From Solirubrobacteraceae bacterium (lineage in GTDB: Bacteria; Actinomycetota; Thermoleophilia; Solirubrobacterales; Solirubrobacteraceae), in contig DASZGB010000005.1 of assembly GCA_035939185.1 (NCBI GenBank), positions 182,713 to 246,712 of the forward strand: 64,000 nt of DNA, given 5' to 3'. Positions within the stretch are counted from its first letter, which is position 1. The number at the start of each line of letters is the position of its first letter. Of the stretch, positions 11,323-19,972 are shown piece by piece. A program made the position numbers and the translations under genes. The notes beneath the pieces are model-generated. The model worked only from the letters and a program-made list of their open reading frames with translations. It was not told the origin of the DNA and ran no database searches.

Positions 11323-11991
11323 TCATACGCCCAATATCCCGAGATCACTTAGGCGGCAAGCGCACCTTGAAGCCCAAACCCGATCATCGAGCAAGTGAAT
11401 CGCCCCGGCGTCGCGCAGCGCATATAGCGCAGCGGTGACAGTCTTTGGCTGTACGTGGGATATCTCGCCCCGCAGTTCGGCGCGTGACCACTGCTCGGTG
11501 TGATCGTCACGGAGCACCTGCCAGACGATGGCCCGTTCGGCGGTGTCCTGGTCGTCGTCACGGACGATGCGCTTTTGACGCTCGCTGGCTTTGGCTTCCA
11601 GCGCTGGAAGACCGGCTAGAAAGCCCTCGATCGCGGCGATGGCACGCTCGGCTTCGTCTCGTAGCTCCGCGCTGTTCTCCTCGTCGTTGCGGTGATTGTG
11701 CTGCGTCCACAGCTCGTTCTGTAGACCGCTCCGCAAGATTGCTGCCCACGAGCCAGTCTCGATGTCGGCCTCGACCGGCGGGCCGGTCCTCTGCCAGTCG
11801 ATCACACGCAGTAGCTCGCACGCCTGATTGAGATTGCGCAGTGGCACCTCGAACCATCCGAGGTTTTCTGCACGGGTATGGAAGGCCTCGTCCAATTCTT
11901 CGGCGAGACGCCAGACCTCAAGCTCCAGACCGGAGTACGCCAGCGGGACGACCACTGCGGGGATAGTGATTGAGCTACTTTGATCGCGCAT
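11323..11991 (-). CDS. Hypothetical protein, paralog B (helical N-domain + probable wHTH C-terminus)
   Basis: RBS AGGAGG upstream; AERAIVWQVL...WSRAELRGEI...AALYALRDAGAI wHTH-like end; similar to 9813-10499. Confidence 0.7.
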   Translation of the reverse strand: MRDQSSSITIPAVVVPLAYSGLELEVWRLAEELDEAFHTRAENLGWFEVPLRNLNQACELLRVIDWQRTGPPVEADIETGSWAAILRSGLQNELWTQHNHRNDEENSAELRDEAERAIAAIEGFLAGLPALEAKASERQKRIVRDDDQDTAERAIVWQVLRDDHTEQWSRAELRGEISHVQPKTVTAALYALRDAGAIHLLDDRVWASRCACRLSDLGILGV

Positions 11992-12721: not shown

Positions 12722-12961
12722 AGCTTCGCCAACCCCGCGATCAGCGTCGGGCGCATGTTCTCCAACACCTTCGCCGGCATCGCGCCCGCGTCCGTCCCCG
12801 CCTACGTCGCCGCGCAGCTCGTCGGCGGCGTCTGCTCAGTCCTCGCGATCCGCGCGCTCTACTCCGACGTGACCTCAGCCGACGCCGCTGAGGTCATCCT
12901 GCCGCACGAACAGGCCCGCGCGGACGGCGCCAGCCTGCGCGCCAGCGCACTAGATGATTGA
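12722..12961 (+). pseudogene. 3' fragment of MIP/aquaporin (arsenic-operon-type)
   Basis: SFANPAISVGRMFSNTFAGIAPASVPAYVAAQLVGG: second NPA motif only; 5' two-thirds missing. Confidence 0.8.
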
Positions 12962-13945
12962 TTCCACGGTGGTGGCCGTGGTTTTCGAGGGTTTATAGGC
13001 AGCAGGGTCGAAGTCGGCGGTGCTCAATAGCATCGCCCACCGAAGGGGGCCTCGATGGACGCCGACCTCGACCTGCTGCTCATTGCCGTTTATGTCACGG
13101 CTGACGATCTCCTGCCCTAGCGGCCGGGGAACGCCAAGCGGATCGTCACAGACGCGGAGGTCGTGACGCTGTGTATAGCGCAAGCGATCATGGGTATACC
13201 GTCTGACCGGCGGTTCCTCGCCGTCGCGTCCAAGCGCCTTTGCCACCTCTTCCCGCGGCTCCCAGGGCAAGCCGGCTACCACAAGCGCCGCCGTGCCTTG
13301 ACGGGCACCCTGGAGTGGCTGATGGAGGTCTTCGCGAGCCAGAGCCCGGGGTTCGAGGACGATCTCCTGCTGGTCGACTCCACCCCGGTGGAGTGCGCCA
13401 GAAGCCGCGAGACCGTCAAACGCTCGCAGCTTGGCGACGCTGCGGACTACGGGTACTGCGCCAGCCATTCCCGGTTCTTCTGGGGGTTCAGGCTGCACGC
13501 CATCTTCGCGCCCGACGGGACCCCAGAGCACTCGCCCTGACCTCCCCCAAGCAGGACGAGCGCGACGTCGCGCTCAAACTCCTCGAGCGCTGCCCCCGCC
13601 AGGGCAAAGTGACGCTGATCGGCGATAAGGGCTACGCCGGCCGGGAGTTCGCTATCCGCGTCGGCGACCTGGACGCCACGATCGCCAGACCCCGACGCAA
13701 AGACGAGCCCGGACGTGGACCCCACCTCGCGCCGATCCGCCAGCGCATCGAGAGCATCTTCTGGACCTGCAGAGACATCCTCACCCTCGAGCGCCACGGC
13801 GCACGCACCCTCCCAGGACTCAGAGAGCGCGTCCTGCAACGCCTCCTCTGTCTCGCAGCAGCCATCTCCCTCAACCACCAACTCGGCCGCCCAAGCCGCG
13901 CACTCGTCAACTACCGCGCCTGATCCCGTGGAATCAATCAACTAG
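12950..13945 (+). mobile_element. IS982-family insertion sequence (defective)
   Basis: CTAG+ATGATTGATTCCACGG (12950-12969) and CCGTGGAATCAATCAA+CTAG (13926-13945): 16-bp IRs with 1 mismatch, flanked by CTAG (probable target duplication). Confidence 0.85.
13055..13923 (+). pseudogene. IS982-family DDE transposase pseudogene
   Basis: MDADLDLLLIAVYVTADDLL; in-frame TAG 13118-13120; LLVDSTP, FWGFRLH; frameshift ~13523; LIGDKGY; RQRIESIF. Confidence 0.85.
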
Positions 13946-13947
13946 AC

Positions 13948-13995
13948 GTACCGCAACGGTACCCAAAACGACCTTCGTTGGTCGTGAAGGGACTT
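13948..13995 (+). repeat. 47-bp imperfect direct repeat, copy 1
   Basis: GTACCGCAACGGTACCCAAAACGACCTTCGTTGGTCGTGAAGGGACTT; matches 18558-18604. Confidence 0.8.
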
Positions 13996-14344
13996 CTGCC
14001 AAACCCGGCAAGTTCAATCTGCCGGACCTCGCTCTATACTCCTATGACCCACTACTGGAGGAGCAGCGAAAACCGATAGCCGAACAGCACATAGCTCCGC
14101 CGCGGAGCAGGTGTCGACCAAGTTTTTTTGTCGCCCCCGCAGCTCTCTCGAACATGAGGTCGGGATTGAGCGCGAACCGGGCAATGTTGTAGCCCAGACA
14201 CAGCGACCGTCACACGCCAACACCATGTGACTCGTCCCCCTCCAGCATCCTCCGGCTAGTGCCGCCACGCCCATCGAAGCTCTGATGGCGAGGTGGGCTC
14301 GACGGCTCCGCGCGGCAGTCCTTCGGCTCAAACGAAAGGACACG

Positions 14345-14434
14345 ATGAGCAGACCGATTTCATTTCCCTCGTTGCGCACACAGGGCGACCGGCAGCCAGC
14401 CGCAGCCGGTGCTTGGCATGGCGGTGATCGATGA
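14345..14434 (+). CDS. 29-aa upstream ORF coupled to helicase
   Basis: RBS GAAAGGA, ATG 14345, TGA overlaps helicase ATG (ATGA). Confidence 0.4.
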   Translation: MSRPISFPSLRTQGDRQPAAAGAWHGGDR

Positions 14435-15831
14435 GAGTCCTCTCCGATGTACGCCTCACGCCTGAGCAGCTAAAGGTCGTGCGCGATCCGCGGCCCGGCA
14501 CGATGCTGATTCGCGGCGCCGCGGGCAGCGGCAAGACCACGACGGCGGTGCGTCGTCTGCAGTTCGTCGCTGGCGTGTGGCTGCGTCAGCACGCCCGCTC
14601 CGGTGTCGCCGAGCCTCTGCAGGTACTCGTGCTGACCTACAACCGCACGCTACGGGGCTATGTCGAGGAGCTTGTAGAGCGGCAGGTCAGCAGCATCTCG
14701 CAAGCGGAGTTGACGCTCGACACCTTCGGGCGCTGGTCGATGTGCCAGCTCGGCTTTCCTGACGTACTCGATGAGCGCGAACGCAGCGCCAAAATCTGGC
14801 AGCTCGGACAGCAACTCGGCTACACACGCGAGTTCCTGCTCGATGAGGTCGACTACGTCCTCGGGCGGTTCTTGCCATCCGATCTCTCGCTCTACGCGGA
14901 TCCGCAGCGCATCGAGCGCACCGGACGCGGCACGACGCCGAGGGTCGATCGAAAAGCGCTGCTTGAGCGCGTGATCTTCCCCTACCAGGAGGGGAAGACG
15001 ACGGAGAGATTACGAGACTGGAACGACCTCGCGGTGATGCTCGCGACCCGCGAGGACGGCCCACGCTACGAGGTCATCGTGGTCGACGAGGCGCAGGACT
15101 TCTCGGGCAATCAGGTCCGGGCTGTCGTGCGTCACGCAAGCCAGCAGGCCAACGCGACCTTCGTGCTCGATGCCGTGCAGCGCATCTACCCGAGCGGGTT
15201 CACGAGCTGGCGCGAGGTCGGGGTCCAGATCACGGGCGCCAACTCGCACCGGCTGAGCACCAACCATCGCAACACCAAGCAGATCGCTGCCTTTGCCTAC
15301 CCGCTGGTTGCAGGACTCCCACCGGAGGATGACGGCACGCTGCCCGAGTTCGAGAACAGCGAGCGCGAGGGACCGCAGCCGCTGGTGGTACGCGGTCGCT
15401 TCGCCGACCAGATGCAATATGTCATCGAGCACATCGGCGAGTTGCCCGATGATGAGTCGGTAGCGCTGCTGCACCCAAAGGGCGGCGGGTGGTTCAGCTA
15501 CGTCCGAGAAGTCCTCAGAGCCGCCAGTATGTCGTTCGTGGAGATCACTCGCCGCTCCGAGTGGCCGCAAGGCCCGGAGGAGATCGCACTTTGCACGATG
15601 CACTCCTCCAAGGGTCTTGAGTTCGATCACGTCGTGCTACTCGGGCTCAATGCCGAGCTGATGCCACATGGCAGCGAAGAGAACGACACCCAACTGCTCA
15701 CGCATCGCAAGCTGGTGGCAATGGCGATTGGTCGAGCCCGCAAGAGCGTCATGCTCACCTACAAGCCCGGCGAGGAGTCACGCGTGGTCGATCTACTCGA
15801 CCCAGACACCTACGAAGAGGTCGATCTATGA
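14431..15831 (+). CDS. Compact SF1 (UvrD/Rep-like) helicase
   Basis: GAAGSGKTT, VLTYNRTL, VIVVDEAQD, LSTNHRNT, TMHSSKGLEFDHV, AIGRARK. Confidence 0.9.
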   Translation: MRVLSDVRLTPEQLKVVRDPRPGTMLIRGAAGSGKTTTAVRRLQFVAGVWLRQHARSGVAEPLQVLVLTYNRTLRGYVEELVERQVSSISQAELTLDTFGRWSMCQLGFPDVLDERERSAKIWQLGQQLGYTREFLLDEVDYVLGRFLPSDLSLYADPQRIERTGRGTTPRVDRKALLERVIFPYQEGKTTERLRDWNDLAVMLATREDGPRYEVIVVDEAQDFSGNQVRAVVRHASQQANATFVLDAVQRIYPSGFTSWREVGVQITGANSHRLSTNHRNTKQIAAFAYPLVAGLPPEDDGTLPEFENSEREGPQPLVVRGRFADQMQYVIEHIGELPDDESVALLHPKGGGWFSYVREVLRAASMSFVEITRRSEWPQGPEEIALCTMHSSKGLEFDHVVLLGLNAELMPHGSEENDTQLLTHRKLVAMAIGRARKSVMLTYKPGEESRVVDLLDPDTYEEVDL

Positions 15832-16478
15832 GTGCCATCGCGGAGATCATTCAGGAGCGAGAAATCACGGAGGTCGTGCATTTCACGACCAATCACGGTG
15901 TGTTGGGCATGTTCGCCGACGGCAGGCTGCTCTCCCGTAAGCGTCTACCGACGAACAAGTACCTCGAGCACGTCTACCTCCCGAACGCATCGGTGCGCAA
16001 GGACCCCGCCTGGCTCGACTACATCTCCATGTCGATCAGCCGGGTCAACACAAGATTCTTCGGCTTCTCCCAGGGCTGGGAGCGGGAGGTCGAGACGTGG
16101 TGGGCGATCGTCGCGCTGGACCCGACGATCCTCAACCACGAGGGCGTCGTCTTCACGACCACCAACAACATCTACCCAAGCTGTCGCCGCGCTTCCGGCG
16201 CCGACGGGCTCGAAGCGATGTTCGCTCCCGTCGTAGCCGGCGTGTGGGAAAGGCCTCTGAAGCGGACCTACGATATGCCCGCTAGCTGGACGACCGACGA
16301 CCAAGCCGAGATCCTCTACCCAGCAGAACTGCCCACGAGCTACCTGCGCGAGGTCTACACCGCGACCGACGAGCACGCCGATATCGTCGCCTCCCAATAC
16401 GAAATGCTTGTCGCCCAAGGCCACGCCAGCGACCCACGAAGCGAGCTTCCAGTCCATGTCCGCCCAGAGTTCTTCTAA
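15828..16478 (+). CDS. darT: DarT-like (DUF4433) ssDNA ADP-ribosyltransferase
   Basis: VVHFTT...GRLLSR, YISMSIS, VFTTTNN, QAEILYP (catalytic Glu retained); 216 aa; ATGA overlap with helicase. Confidence 0.75.
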   Translation: MSAIAEIIQEREITEVVHFTTNHGVLGMFADGRLLSRKRLPTNKYLEHVYLPNASVRKDPAWLDYISMSISRVNTRFFGFSQGWEREVETWWAIVALDPTILNHEGVVFTTTNNIYPSCRRASGADGLEAMFAPVVAGVWERPLKRTYDMPASWTTDDQAEILYPAELPTSYLREVYTATDEHADIVASQYEMLVAQGHASDPRSELPVHVRPEFF

Positions 16479-18132
16479 CGCAAGCAAGCAGCGCCGAGCG
16501 GCTATCCGCCGATCGGCGCTTTGGGCTGCCTGGGGCGATGCGCTCGGCTTCATGACCGAGCGCGCCAACGCCGCTCGGGTCCGCCAACGAACCGGCCAAG
16601 ATCGCGTCGAGCAGACGAAGCCCTGGCAGCGCAAGATAGGCGGCAGGACCGGCCCAACGGTCACCTTGCCAGCCGGCTGCATTTCAGACGACACGCAGCT
16701 ACGGCTCAGCACCTGCCGCGCGATCCGAGGCGACGGTGCCTTCGACGTGGAGCCGTTCGCAAAGATCGAGCTAGCGACGTGGCCCGCCTACGCGCTCGGC
16801 GCGGGTCTTGGCTCGACGGCCGCTGCGAACAATCTCAAGCGCCGCGACGTGACCTGGGACACCAACTTCTTCGACACGAAACGGTCGAACTACATGCAGG
16901 GCGGCGGCAATGGCGCAGCAATGCGAATCCAGCCGCACGTTTGGTCGGCCGCCAGCCCAGGCGACCACGACGCCGACGTTCTCGTCAACGCCGTAGTCAC
17001 GCACGGCCATCCGCGGGGTATTGTCGGCGCGCTCTTTCATGCAGCTTGCCTGGACGCAACCCTGCGCAGCGGGTCGATCCTAGGGCCGGGCGAGTGGGCG
17101 AAGATCGCCGACCAAGCCGCAGCCCGCGTGGTCGAACTCGCGCACGACGATCACCGCCTCGCCGAAGTCTGGCTCGGAGCGTGGGAGGACCACAGCGAAC
17201 AAACCTTCGCTGAAGCGGTGACGCAGACAGTCGGCGAGCTACAGGACGCGTTGAAGCTATGCACGACCGTCCTCATCGAGGACCAGAAGGCCGCATATGC
17301 CCGTGCCGTAGAAGCCCTCGATGCACGCGGTGAGGAACGCGGCTCGGCCATCAAGTCGGCGGCACTCGCACTCCTAGCAGCGCACCTCTATCAAGGCCGA
17401 CCGGAAGAGGCCTTGATCCGCTGCGCGAACGAGCTATGGACAGACACAGACACGATCGCGACGATGGCTGGGGCCCTGCTCGGCTTGACAGCAGGCGACG
17501 AGCCGATGGGCGCCATCGCTGATCGCGACGTGACGGTCATGGAGGCGGATCGCATGGCTGCGATCGCCGAAGGGCAGACGGTGCCGAGCTTCCCCTATCC
17601 GAGCCTCGTGACATGGAGTTCGCCCAAGGCACAGCTCGATTCGGTCGTGGCGGACGGGGACCAGCTCCAGCTCGCCGGCCTTGGGCCGGCCGGCGTGGTC
17701 GAACAAGTTTTCCGAGATACCGGCAAGACCCCGAGCACCTGGGAGTGGCTCAGACTATGGTTCGGCCAGCAGGTCCTGATCCGTCGCCGGCCACGTCCTG
17801 GCCCGCTGTCAGAGTCTCATCGTGTGCAGCAGATGCCTAGCTACCTGATTGCCCCACCGCCTCCGCAGGACACAGGGCAGCTCTCCCTACGCGATGACCC
17901 GTCGCCGACACGCATCACGCCAAATCGTCCAGCCCTTGACGACCGCGACTTGCACGAACTCACGGAATACGTCATCGACTCTGGCTTTGACGAGCACGTC
18001 ATTGGCGAGGCATTGCTGATGCTCGCGCGGCGCCCAGGCGGGATCAACGACGCTATCGGATTCGCAGCGATCATCGCCAAGGCCGCAGCGACACGCCAAG
18101 ATCGAGAAAGACGCCGCAGCGCTCAGTCCTGA
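16456..18132 (+). CDS. ADP-ribosylglycohydrolase (ARH/DraG family) with ~200-aa C-terminal extension
   Basis: AAWGDALG, ISDDTQL, GNGAAMR, VTHGHP, TDTDTIATMAGAL; ATG 16456 overlaps darT end by 23 nt. Confidence 0.9.
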   Translation: MSAQSSSNASKQRRAAIRRSALWAAWGDALGFMTERANAARVRQRTGQDRVEQTKPWQRKIGGRTGPTVTLPAGCISDDTQLRLSTCRAIRGDGAFDVEPFAKIELATWPAYALGAGLGSTAAANNLKRRDVTWDTNFFDTKRSNYMQGGGNGAAMRIQPHVWSAASPGDHDADVLVNAVVTHGHPRGIVGALFHAACLDATLRSGSILGPGEWAKIADQAAARVVELAHDDHRLAEVWLGAWEDHSEQTFAEAVTQTVGELQDALKLCTTVLIEDQKAAYARAVEALDARGEERGSAIKSAALALLAAHLYQGRPEEALIRCANELWTDTDTIATMAGALLGLTAGDEPMGAIADRDVTVMEADRMAAIAEGQTVPSFPYPSLVTWSSPKAQLDSVVADGDQLQLAGLGPAGVVEQVFRDTGKTPSTWEWLRLWFGQQVLIRRRPRPGPLSESHRVQQMPSYLIAPPPPQDTGQLSLRDDPSPTRITPNRPALDDRDLHELTEYVIDSGFDEHVIGEALLMLARRPGGINDAIGFAAIIAKAAATRQDRERRRSAQS

Positions 18133-18179
18133 CCGAAACGCACGCTCGCCCTTGAGCGGTGCGCAATGATGGAGCAGCT

Positions 18180-18550
18180 ATGCCGCAGTCCAACGTGGAG
18201 GTCGCCCGGCGCGGATTCGAGGCCGTGATGTGCGGCGACCTCGACGCGATCGGCGAACTGCTCGACCCCGAGGTCAAATGGCATGGCGGCGACCCGTCGG
18301 CCGAGGGAGCCTGCCGCAACAGGGAGGAGGCGCTGGCGTTCATGCGCCGCGCGCGCAGCCGCAATCCGATGGGCGAGCTTGTGGACGTGATCGACGCCGG
18401 CGACCGCGTGGTCGTGGTGATACGACCGGCCCGCGGCGCCGAGCTGCGGGCCAATCTCACGACCTTTCGTGACGGAAAGGTCATCGAGATAGTCGCCACG
18501 CGACCCCCGACGACGCCTTGGCAGCGGCCGGGATACCGACCACCGGCTGA
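18180..18550 (+). pseudogene. SnoaL/NTF2-like protein with 3' frameshift
   Basis: SNVEVARRGFEA...GDLDAIGELLDPEVKW; expected end (Y)ATPDDALAAAG lies in another frame after ~18498. Confidence 0.7.
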
Positions 18551-18557
18551 GCTGCGC

Positions 18558-18604
18558 GTACTGCAAGGGCACCCAAACAACCTTCGTTGGTCGTGAAAGG
18601 ACTT
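18558..18604 (+). repeat. 47-bp imperfect direct repeat, copy 2
   Basis: GTACTGCAAGGGCACCCAAACAACCTTCGTTGGTCGTGAAAGGACTT. Confidence 0.8.
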
Positions 18605-18994: not shown

Positions 18995-19051
18995 CGTGGC
19001 CAGTCGCTGTCGCCAGCCCCAAAACAGGCCGATTAGCAGGCATTTCTCAAG

Positions 19052-19124
19052 TGGAGCCAGCCGGGATCGAACCGGCGACCTCCTGCTTGCAAAGCAGGCG
19101 CTCTCCCAGCTGAGCTATGGCCCC
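19052..19124 (-). tRNA. tRNA-Ala(TGC)
   Basis: GGGGCCATAGCTCAGCTGGGAGAGCGCCTGC-TTTGCAA-GCAGGAGGTCGCCGGTTCGATCCCGGCTGGCTCCA; G3:U70 pair. Confidence 0.97.
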
Positions 19125-19671: not shown

Positions 19672-19805
19672 GCGCAGGGGCAAACCATACCTCTCGAGGC
19701 GAACGGCTTCGCCGGGCGCTTACCGCCGGTCCGGGGATTCCCACGCACCCCGCTGTGCGACTACACTTGCCTGACCGCGCCTTCCTTCTGTGTGGGGACG
19801 AGCGT

Positions 19806-19878
19806 GGGGCTATAGCTCAGTTGGGAGAGCGCCTGGATCGCACCCAGGAGGTCGGGGGTTCGAGTCCCCCTAGCTCCA
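19806..19878 (+). tRNA. tRNA-Ala(CGC)
   Basis: GGGGCTATAGCTCAGTTGGGAGAGCGCCTGG-ATCGCAC-CCAGGAGGTCGGGGGTTCGAGTCCCCCTAGCTCCA. Confidence 0.96.
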
Positions 19879-19972
19879 TAAGCATGAAAGCCCTGCAAAT
19901 CTGCGGAGTTTTTGTGCGCGACCTGTGTCCACGAGGAGGCGCAATGCGGCAAATCAAGCTCAGGAGAACCAC

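Follow-up and report, generated by a model that had tools for sequence, protein, structure and literature searches.

The closest described system to the locus reported here is DarHTG, also called Liu-DS3 (Liu et al., Nucleic Acids Res 2026;54:gkag308; PMC13069673). It was published in April 2026, and a preprint of December 2025 had named it TgaH-DarTG (bioRxiv 10.64898/2025.12.08.692795). The system was tested in E. coli and has three parts. DarH is a UvrD-like helicase that lacks the 2B domain, DarT is the toxin, and the ARH-like antitoxin, DarG3, is stated to resemble archaeal and eukaryotic ARHs (PMC13069673). E. coli DarHTG protects against T4, T5, T7, and SSL_2009a, and this protection needs the active site of DarT and the ATP-binding residues of DarH. 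DarG3 was indispensable, and constructs with mutant DarG3 could not be made (PMC13069673).

We analyzed a stretch of 64,000 nucleotides from a Solirubrobacteraceae bacterium (the window), which encodes a helicase, a DarT, and an ARH side by side. As this trio has already been published as DarHTG, the window locus is a distant actinobacterial member. We are confident that it belongs to the DarHTG family, as a three-gene, helicase-dependent anti-phage toxin-antitoxin (TA) system that is carried as a cargo module. A reading made from the sequence alone had proposed a DarTG-like toxin-antitoxin or defence module with an ARH eraser and an added helicase, and our results support this. The same sequence-only reading called the system undescribed, which has to be withdrawn: the same architecture is published as the phage-blocking DarHTG, and the window proteins are full-length homologues of such a triad from E. 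coli. The prospect that an existing description would remove the novelty was realized in part. The DarHTG paper covers all three genes, but PADLOC-DB v2 (2023 models) does not: it lacks a model set for DarHTG, and it gave a weak match for DarT (20 bits) and none for the ARH. As a system, the window locus adds little to DarHTG, which had been named and validated before.

Of 5426 complete E. coli genomes, 21 carry the E. coli triad (WP_000699006, WP_000151475, and WP_001087212) at ≥99% identity, as does a Salmonella plasmid. We equate this triad with the cloned Liu-DS3 by architecture and species, not by sequence identity; a literature search on the accessions of the triad proteins gave no match. 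The window's helicase and DarT are 42% and 43% identical to their E. coli/Salmonella counterparts over the full length (BLASTP E = 3e-130 and 8e-51), and DarG3 is 36% identical end to end, including its C-terminal extension (BLASTP E = 2e-109).

Organization and setting of the locus

The coordinates of the module are in Table 1. The ORF coordinates bear out the earlier description of three co-oriented, overlapping ORFs: by inspection of the sequence, darH and darT share a 4-nt ATGA (15828-31) and darT and darG3 overlap by 23 nt (16456-16478). The length of DarG3 is counted from the ATG; an alternative TTG at 16408 is also in the open frame. All three ORFs are full length and translationally coupled, have zero internal stops, and keep every family-invariant catalytic residue. 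The helicase, DarT, and ARH domain calls of the sequence-only reading are all over the Pfam cut-offs, and the catalytic motifs that it named are genuinely present, in columns that are invariant in each family.

Table 1. Features of the module, with positions in the window
Feature	Position	Strand	Description
Upstream leader of module	14005..14430	+	Nucleotide homology with the two closest relatives (L004, L005); probably non-coding
darH	14431..15831	+	466-aa UvrD-like SF1 helicase or ssDNA translocase without 2B domain
darT	15828..16478	+	216-aa DarT-family ADP-ribosyltransferase (toxin), DarT1-like type
darG3	16456..18132	+	558-aa ARH-fold ADP-ribosylglycohydrolase (antitoxin) with conserved C-terminal extension

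Nucleotide homology of about 80% to the two closest relatives begins at about 14005-14007. In the leader it spans 14005-14366 and picks up again, at 14382 or 14413, shortly upstream of the darH start. The indels relative to these relatives have lengths that are not multiples of three, and we found no ORF common to the relatives in the conserved 425-nt upstream region. A scan of this region against Rfam gave no match, and a scan with the sigma-70 consensus only gave no promoter-like match; a notable terminator was likewise absent. The leader is probably non-coding and may hold a promoter or a 5'-UTR.

The 4.1-kb module (14005-18133) adjoins conjugation (T4SS) genes, an insertion sequence (IS), and tRNA-Ala genes, and a gene for an HTH regulator is also next to it. 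The earlier claim that the genes of the surrounding island are frameshifted is correct only in part. The transposase is split over two frames, and it sits in an IS whose 20-bp inverted repeats are intact. A programmed frameshift, of the kind that occurs naturally in IS elements, may account for the two frames. A truncated MIP fragment adjoins the IS.

A 47-nt direct repeat flanks the locus. It is not a genome-wide REP-like element, as these are the only two copies in the genome. Both ends of the homology with the close relatives, at 14005 and 18133, fall within the repeats, which are therefore not the boundaries of the transferable DarHTG module.

The helicase

DarH matches the Pfam families UvrD-helicase (40.9 bits) and UvrD_C (50.2 bits), both over the cut-off; the UvrD_C match covers only the last ~80 positions of the family. 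The best structural matches of its AlphaFold model (pLDDT 86) are PcrA, UvrD, and Rep (E ~1e-19), with TM scores of 0.6-0.7 on the query and ~0.5 on these targets of ~630-650 aa. The matches include 2is6, which is the comparator structure of the DarHTG paper. Since only ~190 aa follow domain 1A and domain 2A is uninterrupted, DarH has no space for a 2B insert. Walker A and B and motifs III-VI are invariant in the family; the invariant residues are G29-T36 of Walker A (with K35), D219/E220/Q222/D223, R280/N281, T389-F398, and R435.

The transferase and its likely acceptor

The darT product matches PF14487 at 54.4 bits (cut-off 22.5), and H18-F19-T20 and Q159-A160-E161 sit in family-invariant columns. 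When we compared a profile of the DarT family to the PDB, the sole match was DarT1 from E. coli C7 (8baq, E = 1e-17); DarT2 chains were absent from the matches, even at E ≤ 10. In the profile alignment to 8baq, residues H17, R35, N48, R52, D54, S63, F72, N104, and E152 of DarT1 correspond to H18, R37, N53, R57, D59, S69, F78, N113, and E161 of the window protein. Across 15 family members, S69, D59, N113, R57, and E161 are invariant.

In the guanine-specific subfamily, Ser63 of DarT1 replaces the Tyr of the H-Y-E triad, and S63 and N104 of DarT1 have been equated with Y71 and H119 of DarT2 (Schuller et al., Mol Cell 2023; PMC11543638). Mapped through these two residues, the positions of Tyr71 and His119 in DarT2 are Ser69 and Asn113 in the window's DarT. 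On this alignment the DarT clade of DarHTG groups as DarT1-like, a point that goes beyond the DarHTG paper. As every residue that defines the guanine-specific DarT1 is invariant, and DarT2 was not detected, N2 of guanine in ssDNA is the likely acceptor. The earlier reading had suspected an acceptor other than thymidine, and this is supported. The SMS motif, which had been taken as non-canonical, is nothing of the kind: its second Ser (S69) is family-invariant and aligns with Ser63 of DarT1. Placing these enzymes with DarT1, rather than with the thymine-specific DarT2, gives a concrete and testable prediction of the acceptor.

The probable antitoxin

The darG3 product matches ADP_ribosyl_GH (PF03747) at 111 bits (cut-off 26.2), with invariant metal-binding and catalytic residues D28, E35, S77-D78-D79-T80, and D330-T331-D332. 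In its predicted model (pLDDT 88), residues ~1-375 form the ARH fold, and the best matches in the PDB are ARH3 (6hh4), MJ1187 from M. jannaschii (1t5j), and DraG; the eukaryotic ARH3 and the archaeal MJ1187 agree with the resemblance stated for DarG3 in the DarHTG paper. A search against a library of viral folds found only generic phage and giant-virus ARHs. By Pfam, none of the three proteins contains a macrodomain or a NADAR domain.

Beyond the ARH fold, the model has a β domain of five strands (397-444), a disordered segment (468-493), and a three-helix bundle (499-557). A Pfam search of this C-terminal part found no family at E ≤ 1. The conserved extension, with its β domain and three helices, is a second point that goes beyond the DarHTG paper, and this unannotated module could be an element that binds DarT or DNA.

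Conservation and distribution

To compare gene neighborhoods, we used 80 species-level loci from the genomes with the closest DarT relatives. Helicase, DarT, and ARH occur in this order, on one strand and as full-length homologues, in 78 of the 80 loci (uninterrupted in 70). This conservation far exceeds chance. The 80 loci span Actinomycetota, Acidobacteriota, Pseudomonadota, Chloroflexota, Desulfobacterota-like bacteria, Binatia, and Saccharimonadales. No fourth gene recurs in the 3-kb flanks of the 78 loci, and the same comparison of flanks led us to reject the neighboring SnoaL gene as a component of the system. About eight loci have a split or interrupted helicase, and plasmid p1 of a Streptomyces carries a degenerate copy. 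Some homologues are on conjugative or mobilisable plasmids, while most are chromosomal. The module is patchy: within the order, 2 of 301 genomes have it, and none of the 15 other genomes of the genus does. Helicase-DarT-ARH is a strict, self-contained three-gene module that has spread horizontally over at least six phyla, including Actinomycetota.

Proposed mechanism and alternatives

With a little less than even confidence, we propose that the DarTs of DarHTG systems modify guanine-N2 in ssDNA that DarH exposes, that DarG3 erases this mark, and that its β domain and three-helix C-terminus anchor it on DarT or DNA. DarT, whose ART family and catalytic residues are described above, would use NAD+ to ADP-ribosylate a base in ssDNA; residue conservation suggests that this base is guanine, modified at N2 as by DarT1. 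In an uninfected cell, the ARH-fold DarG3 would act as the antitoxin by hydrolysing the adduct, which would keep the cell alive, and with its C-terminal β and helical domains it may hold on to DarT as well. During phage infection, the 2B-less, UvrD-like motor DarH would move along replicating or incoming DNA, or unwind it, at the expense of ATP, and it might thereby either supply or sense the ssDNA substrate. Modification by DarT would then block replication of the phage DNA, in an abortive-infection-like manner.

Erasure of guanine-N2-ADP-ribose by DarG3 is chemically plausible because N2 is part of a guanidine-like group, which resembles the Arg-ADP-ribose that ARH1 and DraG cleave. If this is true, DarG3 would be the first hydrolase of the ARH superfamily for which removal of base-linked ADP-ribose from DNA is shown. 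And if the prediction of guanine holds, the ARH fold would join the macrodomain and NADAR as erasers of nucleobase ADP-ribosylation.

Characterised ARH, DraG, and ARH3 enzymes act on ADP-ribose that is linked to Arg, Ser, or a terminal phosphate, the model of DarG3 is nearest to ARH3 and DraG, and in one published table no ARH enzyme is entered for a nucleobase adduct. The DarT-like enzyme might accordingly modify a protein (at Arg or Ser) or RNA instead of a DNA base, with the helicase as its target or as an RNA helicase. We consider this unlikely, as the transferase belongs to PF14487 and has the full catalytic and base-coordinating set of DarT1 (including Asn113 for Asn104 and Asp59 for Asp54), and its partner is a DNA motor of the UvrD/PcrA/Rep type. 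It is similarly improbable that the triad serves mainly as an addiction or stabilisation module (by post-segregational killing) of a conjugative or integrative element, rather than in phage defence. The pairing of a toxin with an enzymatic antitoxin is classic for TA modules, and the neighboring T4SS genes, HTH regulator, and IS, as well as the plasmid-borne homologues, would fit an addiction role. Yet several phages are blocked by the E. coli homologue, which needs the helicase's ATPase for this, a helicase is of no obvious use to a simple addiction module, and most homologues are chromosomal; also, the addiction and defence roles are compatible.

That the window's copy is an inactive relic seems very unlikely to us. 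Degenerate copies do exist elsewhere, such as the one on Streptomyces plasmid p1 and the eight or so loci with split or interrupted helicases, and an IS and a gene fragment are in the neighborhood, but here the three ORFs are full length without internal stops, with invariant catalytic residues and with the overlapping start and stop codons kept. Hardly credible is a housekeeping-type regulator of host replication or growth that acts by reversible ADP-ribosylation of DNA. Such a role is documented for a canonical DarTG, that of Mycobacterium tuberculosis (PMC12170906), but the presence of our module in so few genomes of the order and in no congener, with no fixed genus-wide chromosomal position, its sharp horizontal-transfer boundaries, and its mobile-element setting all argue against it.

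Comparison with known systems

Two annotations with partial matches to the window's proteins were rejected. In PADLOC-DB v2, GajB, the UvrD-like helicase of Gabija, matches the window's helicase at up to 68.7 bits, but these matches span generic helicase motif segments only; Gabija was set aside because its OLD-family nuclease GajA is absent and the neighbors are DarT and an ARH. The DraG equivalog (TIGR02662) matches at 29.2 bits, relative to a cut-off of 337, and the partner of the ARH is a DarT. More broadly, NCBIfam has no equivalog for these proteins: PcrA, Rep, UvrD, HelD, and DraG are all far under their cut-offs.

DraT/DraG and the ART-ARH effector-immunity pairs (such as Listeria Lmo0067, PDB 8za7) resemble the window locus in that an ARH hydrolase is encoded beside the ART whose modification it reverses, and the metal-binding motifs S-D-D-T and D-T-D-T are common to these hydrolases and DarG3. 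In contrast, the window's transferase is a DarT, of the H-Y-E/ARTD type instead of an R-S-E ART, and DNA, not protein, is what it is expected to modify. The window also adds the helicase and the C-terminal extension of ~180 aa.

DarTG2 (from Thermus aquaticus, M. tuberculosis, and EPEC) and the window locus are both TA or defence systems of reversible DNA ADP-ribosylation with a PF14487 transferase. However, DarTG2 has the macrodomain antitoxin DarG2 and a transferase with Tyr71 and His119, whereas the window has no macrodomain and has Ser69 and Asn113. The locus shares with DarTG1 a DarT1-type transferase and the expected chemistry, ADP-ribosylation of guanine-N2 in ssDNA (PMC11543638). The antitoxin of DarTG1 is the NADAR protein DarG1, while that of the window has the ARH fold and is accompanied by an extra, essential helicase. 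Also, the position of Met71 in DarT1 holds Phe, Met, or Leu in the DarT family of DarHTG (Phe77 in the window).

DarHTG itself has the same gene order as the window, H-T-G, with a UvrD-like helicase without 2B, a DarT toxin, and an ARH-like antitoxin, and the sizes are close (465/221/561 aa in E. coli/Salmonella and 466/216/558 aa in the window). The window's copy differs in that it comes from a high-GC, Solirubrobacterales-like actinobacterium and is only 36-43% identical. Its neighbors are T4SS conjugation and tRNA-Ala genes. The E. coli copy, by contrast, is next to ychF in an integrase- and IS-rich island.

Gene calls and domains

The helicase, DarT, and ADP-ribosylglycohydrolase (ARH) genes of the window make up a distant member of the DarHTG family that appears to be intact. 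The parts of this family are a helicase (DarH), a toxin (DarT), and an ARH-like antitoxin (DarG3). Both gene junctions described in the sequence-only reading are borne out: the helicase and DarT genes share an ATGA stop/start overlap (15828-15831), and the DarT and ARH genes overlap by 23 nt (16456-16478, from the ATG of the ARH to the DarT stop codon at 16476-16478). A TTG at 16408, 5' of this ATG, is likewise open. In the family alignment, the ARH of the closest relative (L004) starts at the Met that is equivalent to the window's ATG, in support of the ATG as the start.

The UvrD, DarT, and ADP_ribosyl_GH domains hold up as well, as all three proteins exceed the curated Pfam cut-offs (DarT scored 54.4 bits against a cut-off of 22.5, and the ARH scored 111 bits). 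In NCBIfam, none of the three proteins matched an equivalog, and the PcrA, Rep, UvrD, HelD, and DraG models were far under their cut-offs. PADLOC-DB v2 (2023) gave only generic GajB-type matches for the helicase, a weak match for DarT (20 bits), and zero matches for the ARH.

Features of the DarHTG module and its surroundings
Feature	Position	Strand	Remarks
Conjugation genes (TrbL/VirB6-like, AAA_10/VirB4-like, TcpE)	upstream of module	-	
Two paralogues, about 220-240 aa	9813-10532, 11323-11991	-	between conjugation genes and HTH gene
MIP/aquaporin fragment, 68 aa	12755-12958		abuts IS; weak Pfam match (19 bits)
IS, 996 bp	12950-13945		20-bp terminal inverted repeats 12950-12969 / 13926-13945, 95% complementary
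Imperfect direct repeat, about 47 nt	13948-13995, 18557-18604		brackets module and SnoaL-like gene
Helicase (darH)	14431-15831	+	466 aa; Pfam UvrD-helicase and UvrD_C
DarT	15828-16478	+	216 aa; Pfam DarT (PF14487)
ARH (darG3)	16456-18132	+	558 aa from ATG; Pfam ADP_ribosyl_GH (PF03747)
SnoaL-like gene	18159-18596		downstream of module
tRNA-Ala pair (TGC and CGC)	19051-19124, 19805-19879	-, +	inverted orientation, just downstream of the island

DarT type and catalytic residues

The DarT family profile had a single match in the PDB, DarT1 from E. coli C7 (8baq, E = 1e-17); it found no DarT2 structures, even at E ≤ 10. We used the alignment of the profile to 8baq, along with the residues defined by Schuller et al. 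2023, to map DarT1 onto the window's DarT. H17, F18, and T19 of DarT1 correspond to H18, F19, and T20; R35 to R37; N48 to N53; R52 to R57; F72 to F78; and E152 to E161. D54, which is an extra catalytic Asp that is specific to DarT1, corresponds to D59; S63, which replaces the Tyr of H-Y-E, corresponds to S69; and N104, which coordinates the base and is His119 in DarT2, corresponds to N113. All of these positions are invariant in the family alignment, as are N74 and the rest of Q159-A160-E161. The position of M71 is Phe, Met, or Leu across the family. Because the family keeps the DarT1-type residues, we predict guanine-N2 in ssDNA, and not thymine, as the acceptor. An SMS motif had been considered non-canonical in the sequence-only reading, but its Ser is S69, which is normal for the DarT1 type.

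The other two proteins also have the invariant residues of their families (K35, D219/E220/Q222/D223, R280/N281, T389, S392, K394-G395, E397-F398, and R435 in the helicase; D28, E35, S77-D78-D79-T80, and D330-T331-D332 in the ARH), so the window's copy appears to be catalytically intact.

Conservation of the triad

We scanned the DarT alignment against one genome per GTDB species and found 223 relatives. The best 80 of these 223 loci are from Actinomycetota, Acidobacteriota, Alpha-, Beta-, and Gammaproteobacteria, and Dehalococcoidia, as well as Desulfobacterota-type lineages, Binatia, and Saccharimonadales. That the three genes belong together is supported by the synteny of these best 80 loci: tblastn with the window's helicase and ARH found the order helicase-DarT-ARH, on a single strand, in 78 of them. 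(This order was uninterrupted in 70 of the 78, and eight loci had a split, truncated, or interrupted helicase.) As for the two exceptions, one had no detectable helicase and one was ended by the edge of its contig. We also clustered the ORFs in the 3-kb flanks of the 78 loci and found no recurrent fourth gene, so we rejected the SnoaL-like gene as a component of the system.

In damaged DarHTG loci (L014, L035, L049, L054, L055, L057, and L082), the gene affected is that of the helicase, which is split, truncated, or interrupted (L057 has an insert of about 1 kb), and the DarT and ARH genes are intact. No helicase was detected in L041. Helicase decay with an intact DarT and ARH fits a toxin-antitoxin pair that is not easily lost and a third gene that decays. 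A degenerate copy on plasmid p1 of Streptomyces sp. FXJ1.172 (L003) has an intact DarT, a 77-aa helicase remnant (annotated as a 3'-5' exonuclease), and a 112-aa ARH remnant, and it adjoins Tn7-like TnsA and Mu-transposase genes.

Ralstonia megaplasmids carry a far more divergent triad with the same layout. In R. solanacearum (L087; AP024098.1, 1843994-1847978), its products are a "DNA helicase" of 498 aa, a DarT-like protein of 230 aa that shares 28% identity with the window's DarT, and a hypothetical protein of 600 aa. The DarHTG-like family thus extends beyond the 223 close relatives. On plasmids of Deinococcus (L085) and Acinetobacter (L086), a DarT domain forms the C-terminus of an 846-aa and a 361-aa protein, respectively. 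In each case, the next gene encodes a hypothetical protein of about 225-235 aa, and an N6 DNA methylase or BREX brxL lies alongside. Both are further DarT architectures in defence neighbourhoods.

Genomic setting and limits of the module

The source assembly (3.29 Mb, 96% complete) has one DarT gene, and close homologues of DarT carry the annotation Solirubrobacteraceae or Solirubrobacterales. Only 2 of the 301 genomes from this order had DarHTG, and none of 15 further genomes from the genus did; such patchiness is typical of defence modules that spread horizontally. The two paralogues upstream have no Pfam match, and between them and the module lie an HTH gene, the MIP fragment, and the IS. 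The DDE transposase of the IS spans two overlapping reading frames (13163-13540 and 13240-13923); a programmed -1 frameshift, instead of decay, could explain this layout. Other Solirubrobacterales likewise have tRNAs beside their DarHTG modules: in L006, a tRNA-Arg (L006 3940-4016) precedes the helicase by about 530 nt, and L008 has, downstream of the ARH, a 46-nt match (L008 5008-5053) to the 3' part of tRNA-Ala(CGC). This suggests that these modules are in tRNA-targeted islands.

Nucleotide homology to the two closest relatives (L004 and L005; about 80-84% identity) is confined to 14005-18133, which comprises the three genes and a 425-nt upstream region. The direct repeats have a 33-nt core (91% identity) with a short hairpin; the SnoaL ORF runs at its 3' end into the right copy, and there are no further copies in the 3.29-Mb genome. 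Since the homology ends at 14005 and 18133, inside the repeats, we ruled them out as the boundaries of the transferable module.

The upstream region (14005-14430) is about 80% identical in L004 and L005, which are also Solirubrobacterales. It appears to be conserved but non-coding: indels between the relatives have lengths that are not divisible by three, and the window, L004, and L005 have no ORF in common. It contains conserved hairpin-like blocks, such as GTCCTTCGGCTCAAACGAAAGGAC, and has no Rfam match. This region may act as a structured leader or encode a small RNA.

Structure models

Beyond its ARH fold, the model of the window's DarG3 has a five-strand β domain (residues 397-444), a Pro-rich disordered linker (468-493), and a three-helix bundle (499-557). 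This extension matches no Pfam family, and W387, G410, W431, G437, and G517 are among its conserved residues. Canonical DarG is reported to neutralise DarT by direct binding as well, which suggests that the extension may bind DarT or DNA.

The ARH fold itself spans residues ~1-375 (pLDDT 88 and pTM 0.81 for the model), and the top matches are ARH3, MJ1187 from M. jannaschii, and DraG. The model is consistent with the description of DarG3 in the DarHTG paper.

The helicase model (pLDDT 86, pTM 0.85) is most similar to PcrA, UvrD, and Rep (E of about 1e-19 to 1e-20), and its matches include 2is6, the structure that the DarHTG authors used. TM-scores were 0.6-0.7 when normalised by the query and only about 0.5 on the targets of ~630-650 residues. 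Domains 1A and 1B reach about residue 275, which leaves about 190 residues, the size of an uninterrupted 2A, and the Pfam UvrD_C match is confined to the last ~80 positions. It follows that the 2B insert is absent.

Comparison with the published DarHTG system

In the sequence-only reading, the operon was proposed to be an undescribed system. The biochemistry of that proposal stands, but the novelty does not: the system has been published as DarHTG, or Liu-DS3, from E. coli (Liu et al., Nucleic Acids Res 2026, PMC13069673), and a preprint from December 2025 (10.64898/2025.12.08.692795) describes it under the name "TgaH-DarTG." Its parts include DarT and DarH, a UvrD-like helicase without a 2B domain; it defends E. 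coli from T4, T5, T7, and SSL_2009a in a manner that resembles abortive infection; and constructs with mutated DarG3 were unobtainable (PMC13069673).

When we compared the window's DarT to plasmids with tblastn, it matched a Salmonella plasmid whose triad is annotated as a helicase (465 aa), DUF4433 (221 aa), and an ADP-ribosylglycohydrolase (561 aa). Among 5426 complete E. coli genomes, 21 also carry this 3.76-kb stretch (≥99% identity); there it adjoins ychF, within an integrase- and IS-rich island. Equating the E. coli triad with the cloned Liu-DS3 rests on species and architecture. The window's proteins align with the enterobacterial ones end to end: the helicases are 42% identical (E = 3e-130), the DarTs are 43% identical (E = 8e-51), and the ARHs, including the C-terminal extension, are 36% identical (E = 2e-109).
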